Sequence record: NC_029091.1
Reading direction: 5' to 3' (one strand)
Length of the DNA stretch: 64,000 bases
Origin: Escherichia phage APCEc01
A model generated the notes under the pieces. It saw only the letters and a list, made by a program, of their open reading frames with translations. It did not search any database and was not told the DNA's origin. Made by a program: the position numbers and the translations under genes. This document shows, piece by piece, positions 57,331 to 63,275 of this stretch; within the stretch, counting starts at the first letter, position 1, and every line of letters starts with the position of its first letter.

Positions 57331-58503
57331 ATGTCTGATTTAAAATCTCGTCTGATTAAAGCTTCTACTTCTAAAATGACTGCAGACTTGACTAAGTCTA
57401 AGCTGTTTAATAATCGTGATGAAGTCCCTACTCGTATTCCGATGTTGAATATTGCACTAGGTGGTGCACTGAATGCTGGGTTGCAATCAGGCTTAACTAT
57501 TTTTGCTGCTCCTTCTAAACACTTTAAAACATTGTTTGGGCTGACCATGGTTGCAGCATATATGAAGAAATATAAAGATGCAATCTGTTTGTTTTATGAC
57601 TCAGAATTCGGTGCTTCAGAATCTTATTTTCGTTCAATGGGTGTTGATTTAGACCGTGTAGTTCATACTCCGATTCAATCTGTCGAACAACTTAAAGTTG
57701 ATATGACTAATCAGCTTGACGCGATTGAACGCGGTGATAAAGTTATTATCTTTATCGATTCAATCGGTAATACTGCATCTAAGAAAGAAACCGAAGATGC
57801 GTTGAACGAGAAAGTTGTAGGTGATATGTCTCGTGCTAAGGCACTTAAATCTCTGTTCCGCATTGTGACCCCGTATCTGACTATTAAAGATATTCCGTGT
57901 GTTGCAATTAACCATACCGCAATGGAAATCGGCGGACTATATCCTAAAGAGATTATGGGTGGTGGTACAGGTATTCTTTACTCTGCTAACACTGTATTCT
58001 TTATCTCTAAACGTCAGGTTAAAGAAGGTACAGAATTGACCGGTTATGACTTCACGTTGAAAGCAGAAAAATCTCGTACAGTTAAAGAGAAATCTACTTT
58101 CCCGATCACGGTTAATTTTGATGGCGGTATTGATCCATTCAGTGGCTTGTTAGAAATGGCAACTGAAATTGGATTTGTTGTTAAGCCTAAAGCTGGTTGG
58201 TATGCTCGTGAATTCCTTGACGAAGAAACAGGTGAAATGATTCGTGAAGAGAAATCGTGGCGTGCTAAAGCTACTGATTGTGTAGAATTCTGGGGTCCGT
58301 TGTTTAAACACAAACCTTTCCGTGACGCAATTGAAACTAAATATAAACTAGGTGCTATCTCTTCTATTAAAGAAGTTGATGACGCTGTTAATGACCTTAT
58401 TAATTGCAAAGCAACAACTAAAGTTCCGGTTAAAACTTCTGATGCTCCGTCTGCAGCAGATATAGAAAACGACCTTGACGAAATGGAAGATTTCGATGAA
58501 TAA
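57331..58503 (+). CDS. uvsX: recombinase UvsX (RecA-like)
   Basis: 390 aa; MSDLKSRLIKASTSKMTADLTKSKLFNNRDEVPTRIPMLNIALGG...; Walker A GPSKHFKT; matches T4 UvsX. Confidence 0.93.
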   Translation: MSDLKSRLIKASTSKMTADLTKSKLFNNRDEVPTRIPMLNIALGGALNAGLQSGLTIFAAPSKHFKTLFGLTMVAAYMKKYKDAICLFYDSEFGASESYFRSMGVDLDRVVHTPIQSVEQLKVDMTNQLDAIERGDKVIIFIDSIGNTASKKETEDALNEKVVGDMSRAKALKSLFRIVTPYLTIKDIPCVAINHTAMEIGGLYPKEIMGGGTGILYSANTVFFISKRQVKEGTELTGYDFTLKAEKSRTVKEKSTFPITVNFDGGIDPFSGLLEMATEIGFVVKPKAGWYAREFLDEETGEMIREEKSWRAKATDCVEFWGPLFKHKPFRDAIETKYKLGAISSIKEVDDAVNDLINCKATTKVPVKTSDAPSAADIENDLDEMEDFDE

Positions 58504-58837
58504 TCTCGATGATTTAAATCTAGAAATCGTTGATGAATCCCCTTCTTCGGAAGGGGAAGACATTCGCAAAGAACGAGTGTTTAATGAATCTCTTAAAATT
58601 ATCCGTTCAGCAATGGAAAATGTCATTCAAGAGATTCTGATTACACTTGAAGACGGTTCCCATCATATAGTCTATATTACAAAACTAGACTGGGTTGATG
58701 GTAAAATCGTAATGGACTTTGCAGTTCTTGACCAGGACAGAAAAGCAGAACTTGCACCGCATGTTGAAAAATGTGTTACAATGCAAGTACAACAAGCTTT
58801 TAATGAACGAACCAAGAAAAAATTTAAATTCTTTTAA
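58496..58837 (+). CDS. 40: head vertex assembly chaperone gp40-like
   Basis: ATG 58496 overlapping uvsX stop; 113 aa; position between uvsX and 41 as in T4. Confidence 0.55.
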   Translation: MNNLDDLNLEIVDESPSSEGEDIRKERVFNESLKIIRSAMENVIQEILITLEDGSHHIVYITKLDWVDGKIVMDFAVLDQDRKAELAPHVEKCVTMQVQQAFNERTKKKFKFF

Positions 58838-58846
58838 GGAGTTATC

Positions 58847-60289
58847 GTGGTAGAAATTATTTTGTCTCATCTCGTATATGACCAGGCTTATTTTTCTAAG
58901 GTCTGGCCTTATATGGATTCTGAGTATTTTGAGCGTGGACCGGCAAAAAATGTCTTTAAAATTATAAAGAGCCACGTTAACGAATATAATGCAATGCCAT
59001 CTATCAATGCGTTAAAGGTGGCTTTAGATAACAGTTCTTTAACTGAAGCCGAATATAAAGGAACTTCAGACCTAATTGAAAAATTGGCTGATACTCCTGA
59101 AGACCACGAATGGTTGGTTAAAGAAACTGAGAAATATGTCCAGCAAAAAGCGATGTATAATGCTACATCCAAAATCATTGAGATTCAGTCTAATGCTGAA
59201 CTACCTCCGGAACAACGTAACAAGAAAATGCCTGACGTAGGAGCTATTCCTGATATTATGCGTCAAGCACTTTCAATTTCGTTCGATAGTTATGTTGGGC
59301 ATGACTGGATGGAAGACTATGAAGCACGTTGGCTTTCTTATCTAAATAAAGCACGTAAGGTCCCGTTCAAATTAAACATTTTGAATAAAATCACTAAAGG
59401 TGGTGCTGAAACCGGTACACTAAACGTTTTAATGGCTGGTGTTAACGTCGGTAAATCTTTAGGCCTTTGTTCACTTGCTGCAGATTATCTTCAAACAGGG
59501 CATAATGTTCTTTATATTTCCATGGAAATGGCTGAAGAAGTTTGTGCTAAGCGTATAGATGCAAACATGCTTGACGTATCACTTGATGATATTGATGATG
59601 GTAACGTATCTTATGCTGAATATAAAGCCAAGATGGAAAAATGGCGTTCAAAAACAACATTAGGACGTTTAGTAGTTAAACAGTATCCTACTGGTGGAGC
59701 TAATGCTAATACATTTCGTGCATTGCTTAATGAGTTAAAACTTAAGAAGAACTTTGTGCCATCTGTAATCATGGTTGATTACTTAGGTATTTGTGGGTCT
59801 TGTCGTATCAGAGTTTACACTGAAAATAGCTACACATTAGTTAAAGCTATCGCAGAAGAACTTCGTGCATTAGCAGTAGAATCTGAAACAGTTCTATGGA
59901 CTGCAGCTCAAGTAGGACGTGCAGCATGGGATGCTTCAGACATGAACATGAGTGATATCGCAGAATCAGCAGGTTTACCAGCAACGGCAGATTTCATGTT
60001 GGCTGTAATTGAAACCGAAGAACTTGCACAAGCTGAACAACAACTTATCAAACAAATCAAATCACGATACGGCGATAAGAATAAGTGGAATAAATTCCTG
60101 ATGGGTGTACGTAAAGGCAATCAGAAATGGGTTGAGATTGAGCAAGAAGGCATGAACACACCTAACACAGTAAATGAAAACGCAGGTGCTCAGATGCGTC
60201 AGGCAGAGGTGAATCGTACGGAACGCGTAGGTAAAGCCAAAGCAACACGTGCGGACCTAGATAGCTTAGCCAATGAGTTAAAATTTTAA
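58847..60289 (+). CDS. 41: replicative DNA helicase gp41 (DnaB-like)
   Basis: GTG start after AAGGAG; MVEIILSHLVYDQAYFSKVWPYMDSEYFE...; Walker A GVNVGKS; 480 aa; matches T4 gp41. Confidence 0.93.
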   Translation: MVEIILSHLVYDQAYFSKVWPYMDSEYFERGPAKNVFKIIKSHVNEYNAMPSINALKVALDNSSLTEAEYKGTSDLIEKLADTPEDHEWLVKETEKYVQQKAMYNATSKIIEIQSNAELPPEQRNKKMPDVGAIPDIMRQALSISFDSYVGHDWMEDYEARWLSYLNKARKVPFKLNILNKITKGGAETGTLNVLMAGVNVGKSLGLCSLAADYLQTGHNVLYISMEMAEEVCAKRIDANMLDVSLDDIDDGNVSYAEYKAKMEKWRSKTTLGRLVVKQYPTGGANANTFRALLNELKLKKNFVPSVIMVDYLGICGSCRIRVYTENSYTLVKAIAEELRALAVESETVLWTAAQVGRAAWDASDMNMSDIAESAGLPATADFMLAVIETEELAQAEQQLIKQIKSRYGDKNKWNKFLMGVRKGNQKWVEIEQEGMNTPNTVNENAGAQMRQAEVNRTERVGKAKATRADLDSLANELKF

Positions 60290-60318: not shown

Positions 60319-60350
60319 GTTTACATCTTCCTCTAGGCATGATATGATGT
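60319..60350 (+). promoter_or_regulatory. early promoter
   Basis: GTTTAC at 60319, TATGAT about 18 nt downstream. Confidence 0.45.
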
Positions 60351-60377: not shown

Positions 60378-60752
60378 ATGAATATGTCTCAAGCAATTTT
60401 TACTGCAATCACCGAAAACACAACTGTTGAAGTAGTTTCTCCGCTGGCAACCTACGTTATTCTTGCTCCTAAAACTATTGTATCTCGTATGGAAAACACA
60501 GGCAAACGTATCGTACAAATAGTTGGAGCTGGAAATCAAAAACTTGATTATCTACGAACCATAAAAGCTTATGAACATTTCCAACTCGAAAAAGGTTCTC
60601 CTATCCAGGTAGAACTCGTAAATGGTGATATCGTTCGAGCAATGTTCCATCATTTCTATGCATTGAATGACCCATCTAAAGCAGTTCGTTTAATTGCATA
60701 CGACGCAAACCAAAACGAAATCAACGCAGATGTATCTAAATTACGTTTTTAA
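60378..60752 (+). CDS. hypothetical protein
   Basis: 124 aa; AAGAGGAAAA RBS. Confidence 0.5.
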   Translation: MNMSQAIFTAITENTTVEVVSPLATYVILAPKTIVSRMENTGKRIVQIVGAGNQKLDYLRTIKAYEHFQLEKGSPIQVELVNGDIVRAMFHHFYALNDPSKAVRLIAYDANQNEINADVSKLRF

Positions 60753-60800
60753 GTTTACTTCTCCAGTAGTTGTGTTATTATAGACCTATCAACTACTGGA
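60753..60800 (+). promoter_or_regulatory. early promoter (PeSL type)
   Basis: GTTTAC at 60753, TATTAT at 60776, inverted repeat TCCAGTAGTTG / CAACTACTGGA. Confidence 0.6.
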
Positions 60801-60807
60801 GAACAAA

Positions 60808-61125
60808 ATGAAAACCATCGATTGTAAAGCAGAATTTAAGATTTTTTATCACGGTTCAAGTAGTTCAGCTAACATCGAAAACATGCTTTGTCCTCCTGAA
60901 GAAACAGGAGTTCTGTCTGAAACTGGACGTAAGAAAAACTTGGATCGTGTATTCTTTACTGAAGATATCGGTTTAGCAAAGATTTATGCAGGACGAGCAG
61001 CACGCTCTTATGGAGGTGAACCACGTCTCTATCGAGTAATTTCTCCGGTAGATGTAGTTCAAATGAATGATACTAAAGGCGCTACAGTTTATCACGCTGA
61101 ATGGGCATTTTGCGAGGAAATATGA
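60808..61125 (+). CDS. hypothetical protein (speculative ADP-ribosyltransferase-like His/Glu pattern)
   Basis: 105 aa; FYHGSS ... KIYAG ... YHAEW segments; assignment speculative. Confidence 0.45.
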   Translation: MKTIDCKAEFKIFYHGSSSSANIENMLCPPEETGVLSETGRKKNLDRVFFTEDIGLAKIYAGRAARSYGGEPRLYRVISPVDVVQMNDTKGATVYHAEWAFCEEI

Positions 61126-61313
61126 GCAAATTAACTAAAGTTACTTTTATCGGTTGGTTTAAAAGCGGTGAGATGTTCACTAAAGATATCATGTTATCAG
61201 GTGATCGCGAAGAAATCGAGTGGGTTACGGTACAACTTGCTGAAGTGAACAATGCATTAGTTAAAGCATTTATTAATGACGAGAAAGTTTTTGAAGCTGA
61301 TTTCAGAGGATAA
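61122..61313 (+). CDS. dmd: Dmd (discriminator of mRNA degradation; antitoxin against RnlA/LsoA-type RNases)
   Basis: ATG 61122; MSKLTKVTFIGWFKSGEMFTKDIML...VNNALVKAFINDEKVFEADFRG resembles T4 Dmd; 63 aa. Confidence 0.7.
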   Translation: MSKLTKVTFIGWFKSGEMFTKDIMLSGDREEIEWVTVQLAEVNNALVKAFINDEKVFEADFRG

Positions 61314-61314
61314 T

Positions 61315-61527
61315 ATGTATTCAACTGTGTTTAAACCATCAACATACGAATTTGCATCAACTACACAATGGAAAGCTCTTATTCTGGAAGGATGGGAACT
61401 AATGATGGACTGCGAAGCATCTGAAAAGTTTCCACACGGCAAAGTGGACTTCGTTAAATTTGCTGTACGTCCGACTAAACGACAGATTCGTCAAGAAAAA
61501 CGCAAATTTCGCAAAAGTTTAAAATAG
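61315..61527 (+). CDS. small basic protein with C-terminal VRPTKRQIRQ tail
   Basis: ATG 61315; 70 aa; C-terminus parallels ORF 32915..33085. Confidence 0.4.
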   Translation: MYSTVFKPSTYEFASTTQWKALILEGWELMMDCEASEKFPHGKVDFVKFAVRPTKRQIRQEKRKFRKSLK

Positions 61528-61529
61528 CT

Positions 61530-61560
61530 GTTTACAAGCACCACATACTGTGTTACTATC
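61530..61560 (+). promoter_or_regulatory. early promoter
   Basis: GTTTAC at 61530, TACTAT at 61554. Confidence 0.5.
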
Positions 61561-61587: not shown

Positions 61588-61956
61588 ATGAAAAAATTAA
61601 TCGCTTTAGCAATGGTGTTTGGATTAACCGGATGTGGTGCCCATGGCTTTATCCCTAATAACGTCGGCCAATTGATTTACAATCCGAATGTTAAACAGTA
61701 CGACCAACCTAAAGTTGAAGTGGAAGACCCGGTTACTGTAGGTAATCGAATGATTCAAGCTGATGCCCATGCTCAACGTTATCGTGACTCTGATACCGTA
61801 GCATTGTCAAAAGAACAACGCGTTAAAGAACATTGTCTACAGGCTACTGAAATCGCATTCATTCGCTATGTTGAAACAACTGGTAAAGAGCCTACCCAGA
61901 AACAAATCGCGAATAACTACGTCCAGTGTATTGAACGTTTAAACAAATTTAATTAA
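61588..61956 (+). CDS. lipoprotein
   Basis: 122 aa; signal peptide with lipobox LTGC (MKKLIALAMVFGLTGCG). Confidence 0.55.
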   Translation: MKKLIALAMVFGLTGCGAHGFIPNNVGQLIYNPNVKQYDQPKVEVEDPVTVGNRMIQADAHAQRYRDSDTVALSKEQRVKEHCLQATEIAFIRYVETTGKEPTQKQIANNYVQCIERLNKFN

Positions 61957-62017: not shown

Positions 62018-62266
62018 ATGGAATTATTCGTAGCTAGTTCAGTGGCAGTTTTAATCGCAGGTATTGGTTCAATCATCATTTACATGTTGCCTTGGGTAAT
62101 CGCACTTATTCGTGGCACAAAAAGCACAACAGCAATCTTCTTTGTATCTTTACTCTTTAACTGGACGATGGTTGGTTGGATTGGAACTTTAATTTGGTCT
62201 ATCGTTGCCGAAAAGAAATCGGCTCAGCAGCCTCAACAAGTAATTATTATTCGTGAAAAAGAATAA
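62018..62266 (+). CDS. small inner-membrane protein
   Basis: 82 aa; two TM helices. Confidence 0.5.
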   Translation: MELFVASSVAVLIAGIGSIIIYMLPWVIALIRGTKSTTAIFFVSLLFNWTMVGWIGTLIWSIVAEKKSAQQPQQVIIIREKE

Positions 62267-62329: not shown

Positions 62330-62623
62330 ATGAAAAAGTTATCATTGGCAGCAATCTTACTTGCAGTATCATGTGCACCGGCTCCAGTTACGGCAGGTTA
62401 TGATAAAGACCTCTGTGAGTGGTCAATGACTGCAAATCAAGAAGATGTTGAACAACAAATCTTCTCTGATATCATGAACATCACTAAACGAGACCGTCCT
62501 AATATGGTTAATAAAGTTGTTGAACAACTTAAGTCTGGTGGTATCATGCAGTACAACTATGTTTTGTATTGTGACCCTAATTTCGATAACAAAGATATCG
62601 TAACCGAAATCACAGGTGAATAA
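62330..62623 (+). CDS. sp: Spackle (Sp) periplasmic superinfection-exclusion / lysozyme-inhibitor protein
   Basis: 97 aa; signal peptide then GYDKDLCEWSMTANQEDVEQQI...SGGIMQYNYVLYCDPNFDNKDIVTEITGE matches remembered T4 Sp. Confidence 0.7.
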   Translation: MKKLSLAAILLAVSCAPAPVTAGYDKDLCEWSMTANQEDVEQQIFSDIMNITKRDRPNMVNKVVEQLKSGGIMQYNYVLYCDPNFDNKDIVTEITGE

Positions 62624-62624
62624 T

Positions 62625-63275
62625 ATGATTTATTATATGCACAAAAATCCACCGTTTAAATACGGTAAATTTCCTGATGCACAATGTTATAATATAACGC
62701 CTGATGAAAACAATCGTGGATATCATATTGGTGTAATTTTTGTAATTGTTAAAGATAACGAAATCGTTGCCTGGGCAGATTTTAAAGGTACAACATATGA
62801 TGTTAATCCTGTGCCTTTCACATATTACAATATAATGGATTTGGCATATGATTATAATTGGTTTAATCATGACACGTTGGCTCATATTGAAGGTGTAGGA
62901 TTTGACATCTCTTATTCTAGCTATTCATTATGTCCTATGAGCCGAGCTCACGGTAAAGATGCCTCATATTTTTCATTTCGGAAACGTGTAAACTTCAAAC
63001 GTAGTACAGAGTATGTTGGTGGACTCTTTGTTAAAGATAATAAAATAACCCGTATTAGTTATCCTCTAAGTGTAGGCCAAAAAGATGTTGATGTTGATTT
63101 AGACTTAACTGAAAATAACATTAATCGTATTGCTTCTGTATATTTTGATATCGATGAAAAAATTGTAGTGTGTGGATATGAATTACCACCTGAAGAAAAG
63201 GCTGAAGCAATTGAAGTCGAATTAGAAATTTCTGTCGATGACCAAATATTTAATGCATTTATGAATCGAGGTTAA
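62625..63275 (+). CDS. hypothetical protein
   Basis: ATG 62625 just after sp stop; 216 aa. Confidence 0.5.
   Translation: MIYYMHKNPPFKYGKFPDAQCYNITPDENNRGYHIGVIFVIVKDNEIVAWADFKGTTYDVNPVPFTYYNIMDLAYDYNWFNHDTLAHIEGVGFDISYSSYSLCPMSRAHGKDASYFSFRKRVNFKRSTEYVGGLFVKDNKITRISYPLSVGQKDVDVDLDLTENNINRIASVYFDIDEKIVVCGYELPPEEKAEAIEVELEISVDDQIFNAFMNRG

Follow-up and report, generated by a model that had tools for sequence, protein, structure and literature searches.

A 105-residue predicted ADP-ribosyltransferase of T4-like phages is related to Arr and mostly occurs apart from its neighbour Dmd

T4 deploys the ADP-ribosyltransferases (ARTs) Alt, ModA and ModB at or just after infection. A described system close to the gene studied here is the p0068 family of predicted ARTs, which are encoded directly upstream of Dmd in T4-like enterophages. 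A p0068-family ART as toxin and Dmd as antitoxin were predicted to form a type II toxin-antitoxin (TA) system in phages of Escherichia, Shigella and Salmonella (Iyer, Burroughs, Anantharaman, Aravind 2022, PMC9503650), and a Mod-like ART occupies the same place upstream of Dmd in some Klebsiella phages (PMC9503650 section 3.7.1). The established targets of Dmd itself are the host toxins RnlA and LsoA (PMC9391042). Here we analyse a stretch of 64,000 nucleotides from Escherichia phage APCEc01 (NC_029091.1), called the window in the following, with a focus on the small open reading frame (ORF) at 60808-61125 directly upstream of dmd, referred to as the ART gene. The p0068 and Dmd pair of PMC9503650 is almost certainly the same gene pair, matched by description, and both the ART assignment and the adjacency to Dmd appear to have been published there as a prediction. 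The published TA reading is not supported by the distribution of the two genes. The predicted fold of the small protein most resembles that of Arr, the enzyme that modifies rifampicin. We propose that the protein works early in infection as an NAD-using effector, without Dmd, on a host or defence target that is conserved, a reading to which we assign a probability of roughly 0.55.

The ORF runs from ATG to TGA at exactly 60808-61125 on the plus strand and encodes 105 amino acids, as the initial annotation had stated. The three segments on which that annotation had based its suggestion of a minimal ART of the H-Y-E type also stand in the expected order, with FYHGSS at residues 13-18 (60844-60861), KIYAG at residues 58-62 (60979-60993) and YHAEW at residues 95-99 (61090-61104). 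An H...Y...E pattern within 105 residues is plausible by chance, and we regard the observation as real because independent evidence, namely homologues in 608 phage records, the substitution pattern and the predicted fold, points the same way. The homologues, which tblastn found with identities mostly of 60-100%, belong to T4-like phages whose hosts include Escherichia, Klebsiella, Acinetobacter, Aeromonas, Enterobacter and Vibrio. The ratio of nonsynonymous to synonymous substitution rates (dN/dS) against orthologues is 0.09-0.13, with synonymous sites near saturation. This is a real gene under strong purifying selection. Between RB69-type and JS10-type phages the ART protein is 90% identical, compared with 90% for UvsX, 69% for gp41, 47% for gp40 and 50-68% for Dmd. 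Accessory early genes do not usually show conservation of this degree, which favours an enzyme acting on a conserved substrate over a binder co-evolving with a variable defence protein.

The only match of the protein in the family libraries was PHROG 2110 (phrog_2110, 3.3e-60), a family with no function assigned, and the RB69 annotation lists the orthologue as RB69ORF040c. Scans against NCBIfam and PADLOC gave no match, nor did a single-sequence search of PDB sequences. A profile search of 1.84 billion representative proteins returned 220 relatives. When bacterial genomes were scanned, only phage-like contigs and two solo copies in assemblies of Patescibacteria (candidate phyla radiation) were found. 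The patescibacterial homologues (L088 4902-5348 and L089 4923-5354) are 143-148 amino acids long and carry a 45-residue N-terminal extension; one of them adjoins an ORF of 347 amino acids that was taken by eye for a transposase or integrase.

Structure prediction followed by a fold search had been set beforehand as the test of the proposed ART fold, and its outcome did not refute the proposal. An AlphaFold2 model built with 40 orthologues reached a mean predicted local distance difference test score (pLDDT) of 83.7 and a predicted template modelling score of 0.76. It contains strands at residues 13-18, 48-51, 72-81, 84-87, 94-97 and 99-104 and a long helix at residues 54-68; residues 31-50 are modelled at a low pLDDT of 57-72. 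The split beta-sheet core of the ART fold superfamily was detected by structure comparison. In a Foldseek search against the PDB, Arr was the only confident match, with a probability of 1.00, and the first non-orthologous match in a viral structure library was a 94-residue phage protein named rifampin ADP-ribosyltransferase (37% identity, template modelling score 0.72-0.80). From these models we conclude with good confidence that the 105-residue protein is predicted to adopt an ART fold, and that this fold is closest to Arr.

The relationship to Arr (PF12120; PDB 2HW2 and 9IAF) is also detectable in the sequences. A profile of 73 sequences matched Arr-ms (2HW2) with E = 5.6e-4, aligning H15 with H19, F49 with Y49, Y60 with W59 and the loop E38-x-G-R41 with E40-x-G-R43. 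Three relatives (P0127, P0133 and P0149) score 26.9-29.4 bits on the Pfam Arr-ms model, above its threshold of 25, over model positions 1-67 of 99; the window protein itself does not reach the gathering score of this model. In both families strand 1 carries the H-G-[ST] motif and strand 2 an aromatic residue, and both have the E-x-G-R loop and consist of a very small single domain. They differ in length (105 against 143 residues), in the F at the place of Y49 and in setting, the phage protein being encoded by an early gene of a lytic phage and Arr serving antibiotic resistance. The profile alignment ends at about Arr residue 82, short of the catalytic D84 and its DPN[VL] motif, whose conservation among Arr proteins is 100% (PMC6092378). 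Because of its length, the lack of a Pfam match and the lack of a D84 counterpart, the sequence comparison places the phage protein in the Arr lineage without making it an Arr.

Conservation was counted family-wide in the 73-sequence alignment and for the T4-type clade in 56 loci. Four residues are invariant throughout the family (H15, G16, A57 and Y60), and P29, P30, E38, R41, V48, F49, T51, A61, A64, G69, G70, G91 and A100 are conserved in at least 90% of its members. FYHGSS forms strand beta-1 and holds a putative NAD-binding motif Y-H-G-[ST]-[ST]. In all 73 sequences it carries the H-G-[ST] signature of the ART superfamily, with H15 and G16 invariant and S or T at position 17, equivalent to H19-G20-T21 of Arr-ms. 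Between beta-1 and beta-2 lies a basic loop, S-E38-x-G-R41-K-K-N44-L-D (60916-60945, plus strand), in which E38 is found in 72 of 73 sequences, R41 in 70, and K43 and N44 in 60. In Arr, a loop between early strands forms the NAD site (PMC6092378), and by conservation and alignment the phage loop is a probable NAD or substrate loop. Strand beta-2 carries V-F49-F-T (60949-60960, plus strand), aligned to HIYIT of Arr, with F49 at the position of Y49, the first aromatic residue of the triad. F49 is present in 71 of 73 sequences and replaced by Y in the other two. The KIYAG segment lies in the long helix, in which A57 is invariant, and contains the likewise invariant Y60, which supplies the helix tyrosine expected of an ART in 73 of 73 sequences.

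Of the H-Y-E triad that the initial annotation had read into the ORF, His15 and Tyr60 stand as invariant residues, whereas the glutamate of YHAEW, E98 (codon 61099-61101), varies among orthologues. PARP, diphtheria toxin and DarT are ARTs of the H-Y-[EDQ] clade, which is marked by a conserved Glu, Asp or Gln on the strand that follows the acceptor loop. An E-[aromatic]-[aliphatic] motif bears the catalytic Glu in PARP and in diphtheria toxin, and the context of E98, E-W-A-F, resembles it; by this resemblance E98 may stand at the catalytic-Glu position of H-Y-E ARTs. Column 98 of the family holds P in 19, D in 18, E in 10, S in 10 and A in 5 sequences, the remainder having other residues. At the T4-type loci the counts are A 20, E 19, S 10 and D 5, and E98 is replaced by A, S, K, N or P in orthologues, the residues seen in the T4-type clade being A, S, K, N, D and Q. 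A second candidate is E103 (61114-61116, plus strand) in the last strand (A-F-x-E), invariant in the alignment of the T4-type clade and present at 55 of the 56 loci; family-wide, only 31 of 73 sequences have E or D there. Counting glutamine as well, D, E or Q occurs at column 98 in 29 and at column 103 in 32 of the 73 sequences, and at neither in 21. The alignment thus contains no third acidic residue conserved across the family, and the triad is two-thirds secure. Either the chemistry would proceed without a fixed acid, as in Tpt1 and as the nearest folds would suggest, or E38 would supply the acid, or some members are not enzymes.

If the ART were a toxin, perhaps acting on RNA, and Dmd its antitoxin, as proposed by Iyer et al. 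2022, the two genes should keep each other's company. In the window they do, as the initial annotation had noted: the ORF directly downstream, 61122-61313, matches Pfam Dmd at 1.3e-21, and at 61122-61125 (ATGA) the TGA stop of the ART gene overlaps the ATG of dmd. The same stop/start overlap is seen in RB69-type and JS10-type phages. Across 62 ART-bearing loci fetched from IMG/VR, however, Dmd lies directly downstream in only 10, all from RB69-type or JS10-type phages. At the other loci the downstream place is taken by a gene for a Zn-ribbon peptide of 46 residues, for a lipoprotein or for a small membrane protein, or by an unrelated ORF, and there too stop and start codons often overlap. About 40 of the ART loci are not beside gene 41 at all; in Aeromonas phage 44RR2.8t and Klebsiella phage Olmo, for example, the gene lies about 1 kb upstream of srd. 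Conversely, T4 has dmd right after gene 41 and lacks an ART gene in between. Dmd was found in 797 phage records, 564 of which are below 60% identity to the window Dmd and T4-type where sampled. Roughly 350 of the 608 ART records, those below 80% identity, belong mainly to phages of Klebsiella, Acinetobacter, Aeromonas and Vibrio, a number estimated from identity bands and not from an exact intersection, and these four genera are not among the leading organism names of the Dmd matches. By the same identity-band estimate, the two sets of records overlap only in RB69-type and JS10-type phages.

The co-occurrence and steady adjacency across the family by which a type II TA system would be recognised are thus not seen. 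The solo patescibacterial copies and the modules in giant proteins described below have no partner gene either. When 942 neighbouring ORFs from the 62 loci were clustered, no partner gene recurred near the ART in different lineages; the clusters are lineage-specific, one set comprising gp41, uvsX and primase and another a zeta-toxin-like gene, Rnl2 and an srd-region cluster. The residue at position 98 offers the TA reading some support, since all 10 ARTs with an adjacent Dmd have E or D there, against 14 of 46 others. We dropped this suggestive correlation as evidence: the Dmd-adjacent loci are close relatives, so that phylogeny confounds it, and E98 occurs without Dmd at several loci (L012 and L016-L021). 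The family described in PMC9503650 was assigned to an H-Y-[EDQ] clade of ARTs and read as a toxin neutralised by Dmd, whereas here the third residue varies, Tpt1 and Arr are structurally nearest, and the genes mostly occur apart. Together with the established role of Dmd against RnlA and LsoA, this leaves the TA pair a slim chance. The functional tie to dmd that the initial annotation had implied is weak, given that each gene is mostly found without the other, and their pairing looks like local gene order rather than a TA unit.

Two further observations concern the genes around dmd. In two related phages (L011 4532-4873 and L015 4498-4830), dmd is directly followed by a gene for a protein of 110-113 amino acids whose N-terminal part matches the Dmd profile (E ~1e-15) and which has a C-terminal extension; by its appearance it is a Dmd paralogue that has diverged in tandem. 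Another conserved product, a peptide of some 40-46 residues that has two CxxC pairs and ends in an acidic tail (MEEFECVVCGCS...CLDCD...EEE), is encoded at L012 4318-4458, at ~4295-4450 in L017-L019 and at ~4514-4660 in L005-L010. Its gene lies directly 3' of the ART gene where Dmd is absent and 3' of Dmd in JS10-type phages.

Three other explanations remain to be weighed against an enzymatic effector. The protein might have an ART fold without catalytic activity and serve as a sponge or sensor, binding NAD+ or a molecule derived from ADP-ribose such as an immune signal. The missing third acid, the missing Arr D84 motif and the very small size would all fit such a binder, and the conserved residues H15, G16, Y60, E38 and R41 would suit nucleotide binding alone. 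However, Tpt1 and Arr, whose folds are nearest, are catalytically active and neither relies on the classical Glu, relatives of the module are embedded among enzymatic domains in multidomain proteins, and E103 is invariant in the T4-type clade; we consider an inactive binder quite unlikely. A true Arr-type resistance enzyme, modifying a rifamycin-like antibiotic or an anti-phage metabolite, is suggested by Arr being the nearest relative by both sequence and Foldseek, and the possibility has been raised for phage-borne Arr-family ARTs (PMC9503650). It is quite unlikely for a protein this much shorter than Arr, encoded by an early gene of strictly lytic phages: the profile and Pfam alignments end at about Arr residue 82, or position 67 of the 99 in the model, Pfam Arr-ms does not match the window protein, and no counterpart was found in it of DPN[VL], which holds D84 together with residues that contact rifampin. 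Finally, an H/Y/E pattern is weak by itself, and the failure to match Pfam, NCBIfam or PADLOC would be expected of a chance motif in an unrelated small protein, or of no gene at all. With 608 homologues, a dN/dS of about 0.1, a confident ART-fold model and a profile match to Arr, this explanation is refuted for practical purposes.

We therefore return to an early NAD-using effector that works independently of Dmd. The protein would be a minimal enzyme of the ART fold and of the Arr lineage, its core, at about 93 residues, being smaller than Arr. Its gene, the first of an ART-dmd-tifA unit, would probably be transcribed in the first minutes of infection from an early promoter of its own. Four elements would bind NAD+: H15-G16-[ST] of strand 1, the loop E38-x-G-R41-K-K-N, F49 of strand 2 and Y60 in the helix after it. 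ADP-ribose would then be transferred to a target that the hosts, among them Escherichia, Klebsiella, Acinetobacter, Aeromonas and Vibrio, share in conserved form. The protein would thus be a host- or defence-directed effector in its own right and not a partner of Dmd. From the absence of a conserved catalytic acid, the closeness to the folds of Tpt1 and Arr and the strongly basic character of the conserved loop, we infer that a non-protein acceptor with a phosphate or hydroxyl group (an RNA or DNA end, a nucleotide or another small molecule) is somewhat more likely than a protein side chain. A protein target, by analogy with AcrF11, may be the alternative class.

Several points weigh against this reading. 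The protein has no Pfam match at all at E <= 10, and a literature search found no experimental work on the gene. No counterpart of Arr D84 or DPN[VL] is seen in it; the aligned residues are M-N-D-T-K-G, and columns 87 and 88 are variable. Position 98 is Ala, Ser or Pro in many orthologues, the 21 of 73 members mentioned above have neither an acidic residue nor Gln at either candidate position, and the protein could be a binder rather than an enzyme. Horizontal spread among phages could partly explain the high conservation of the gene. The region contains 6 promoter-like sites where 4.3 are expected, and the one assigned to the ART gene is purely a consensus match. The class of target, lastly, is one that we purely infer.

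A bolder form of the proposal goes further, and we rate it as unlikely though worth stating. The protein would then be the smallest known ART catalytic unit, working without a fixed catalytic acid, with Tpt1/Arr-like chemistry directed at a phosphate or hydroxyl of a nucleic-acid end or of a nucleotide-type immune signal, and it would serve T4-like phages as a broadly conserved early counter-defence or host-shutoff enzyme.

Relatives of the protein also occur, in other phages and in mobile elements, as modules of multidomain proteins of up to 3,924 amino acids. The largest, P0144 (3,924 amino acids), combines the ART module with a PhageMin_Tail domain of minor-tail, tape-measure type, and P0165 combines it with a portal domain and a 2H/Acb1-like phosphoesterase domain. 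P0149 is a PcfJ-like protein with an ART module, and P0178 has GNAT and Toprim domains beside it. In P0130, P0139 and P0159 the module stands beside ART-PolyVal, with an additional NUDIX domain in P0159. The pattern is that of polyvalent proteins, whose effectors enter together with the DNA (Iyer et al. 2017, PMC5512222). The relatives show this injected-effector arrangement and the stand-alone copy in the window does not; taken together, the gene contexts point to an early or injected effector. Two types of ART domain lie side by side in P0139 (residues 1326-1421 and 1496-1660) and in P0130 (residues 50-188 and 208-299), one of these two proteins being 3,735 residues long. Membership of the phage protein in ART-PolyVal (PF18760; PMC5512222) itself was considered and rejected. 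ART-PolyVal is a separate family of ARTs: when three of its domains were compared by hhalign, the YHGT motif was all that aligned, with a probability of 7%, and for this reason the comparison does not place the third catalytic residue.

Among the other known ARTs, the RNA 2'-phosphotransferase Tpt1/KptA resembles the phage protein in structure only. There is no Pfam PTS_2-RNA match and no match at the sequence level, and the phage protein is a single domain without the N-terminal RNA-binding lobe. Tpt1 is an active enzyme that works without the classical catalytic Glu. The anti-CRISPR ART AcrF11 (PDB 6KYF), which modifies an asparagine of Cas8f, shows no detected sequence homology to it. T4 Alt, ModA and ModB, although likewise ARTs of T-even phages, belong to the R-S-E clade, have about 200 or more residues and are unrelated to it in sequence. 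In RB69, modA and modB lie directly upstream of srd, the gene about 1 kb downstream of the ART gene in Klebsiella and Aeromonas T4-like phages. Because RB69 has modA and modB as well, the 105-residue protein is an additional ART and not a replacement.

The window comes from a T4-like phage of the RB69 type (Mosigvirus), and its segment 60300-61600 shares 98.7% identity with RB69 and 99.5% with several Escherichia phages. All genes named here lie on the plus strand. The ART gene is preceded by uvsX (57331-58503), gene 40 (58475-58837), the helicase gene 41 (58847-60289) and ORF124 (RB69ORF041c, phrog_10668; 60378-60752), and it is followed by dmd (61122-61313; PHROG 2102, named so in the RB69 annotation) and a tifA-like gene 61.4 (61315-61527; Pfam DUF7279 at 3.5e-20, 61.4 in the RB69 annotation). 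Further downstream lie imm.1 (61588-61956), imm (62018-62266), sp (62330-62623) and an adfA-like gene 61.2 encoding 219 amino acids (62616-63275). A consensus scan found a T4-type early promoter-like site at 60754-60781 (9 of 12 matches; GTTTAC as -35, a 16-nucleotide spacer and a TG-extended TATTAT as -10), which may serve as the early promoter of the ART gene, and a Shine-Dalgarno sequence GGAG can be read at 60798-60801, 6 nucleotides 5' of the ATG. Similar promoter-like sites lie 5' of ORF124 (60320-60348) and 5' of imm.1 (61531-61559). Because the next such site comes only at 61531, just after the tifA-like gene, ART, dmd and tifA look like one early unit, as far as consensus matches can indicate. 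Within the ART coding sequence, at 60893-60910 on the plus strand, there is a terminator-like hairpin, CTCCTG...CAGGAG with a T-rich tail; it is probably not functional and was treated as chance because one such site compares with 0.9 expected.

The interval from gene 41 to gene 61 of T4-like phages has been described as an anti-TA island with dmd, tifA and adfA, in which adfA (61.2) acts against DarT1 (PMC9391042). TifA is the product of 61.4; its T4 and RB69 versions inhibit ToxN, and the RB69 homologue neutralises it (PMC10853763). The window holds the full layout of this island, with tifA/61.4-like (DUF7279) and adfA/61.2-like genes and with imm.1, imm and sp inserted between them; the equivalent interval of T4 has dmd, 61.4, sp and 61.2 and is without imm.1 and imm. 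ORF124, which among the fetched loci is present only in two of the RB69 type (L003 and L004), had no match in Pfam, NCBIfam or PADLOC and belongs to a PHROG family without a function. Elsewhere, the surroundings of the ART gene differ. In Acinetobacter phage Acj61 (L083), the gene (Acj61p060, 1474-1797) lies about 1 kb downstream of, and on the same strand as, a gene for nicotinamide phosphoribosyltransferase (1-458), possibly an NAD-related (NAD salvage) neighbourhood in this one phage. Klebsiella-type T4-like phages have a zeta-toxin-family gene about 1 kb upstream on the opposite strand (647-1480 in Olmo, L081; 2142-2978 in L026) and an Rnl2-type RNA ligase gene about 2 kb downstream.

T-even phages are the classic model of viral ADP-ribosylation through Alt, ModA and ModB, and the gene described here adds a further, unrelated and unusually small predicted ART to them. 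It is more conserved than the replicative helicase, it is carried by RB69-type phages and by hundreds of T4-like phages of Klebsiella, Acinetobacter, Aeromonas and Vibrio, and in the window it shares its locus with dmd, tifA and adfA, three proven inhibitors of host TA defences. If the bolder form of our proposal is true, the same module would act as an early gene in these phages and as an injected module in others, and it would represent a fourth, mechanistically distinct ADP-ribosylation system of T-even phages. Identification of its acceptor would reveal either a new step in host takeover or a new enzymatic counter-defence, and would also indicate how small a working ART can be.

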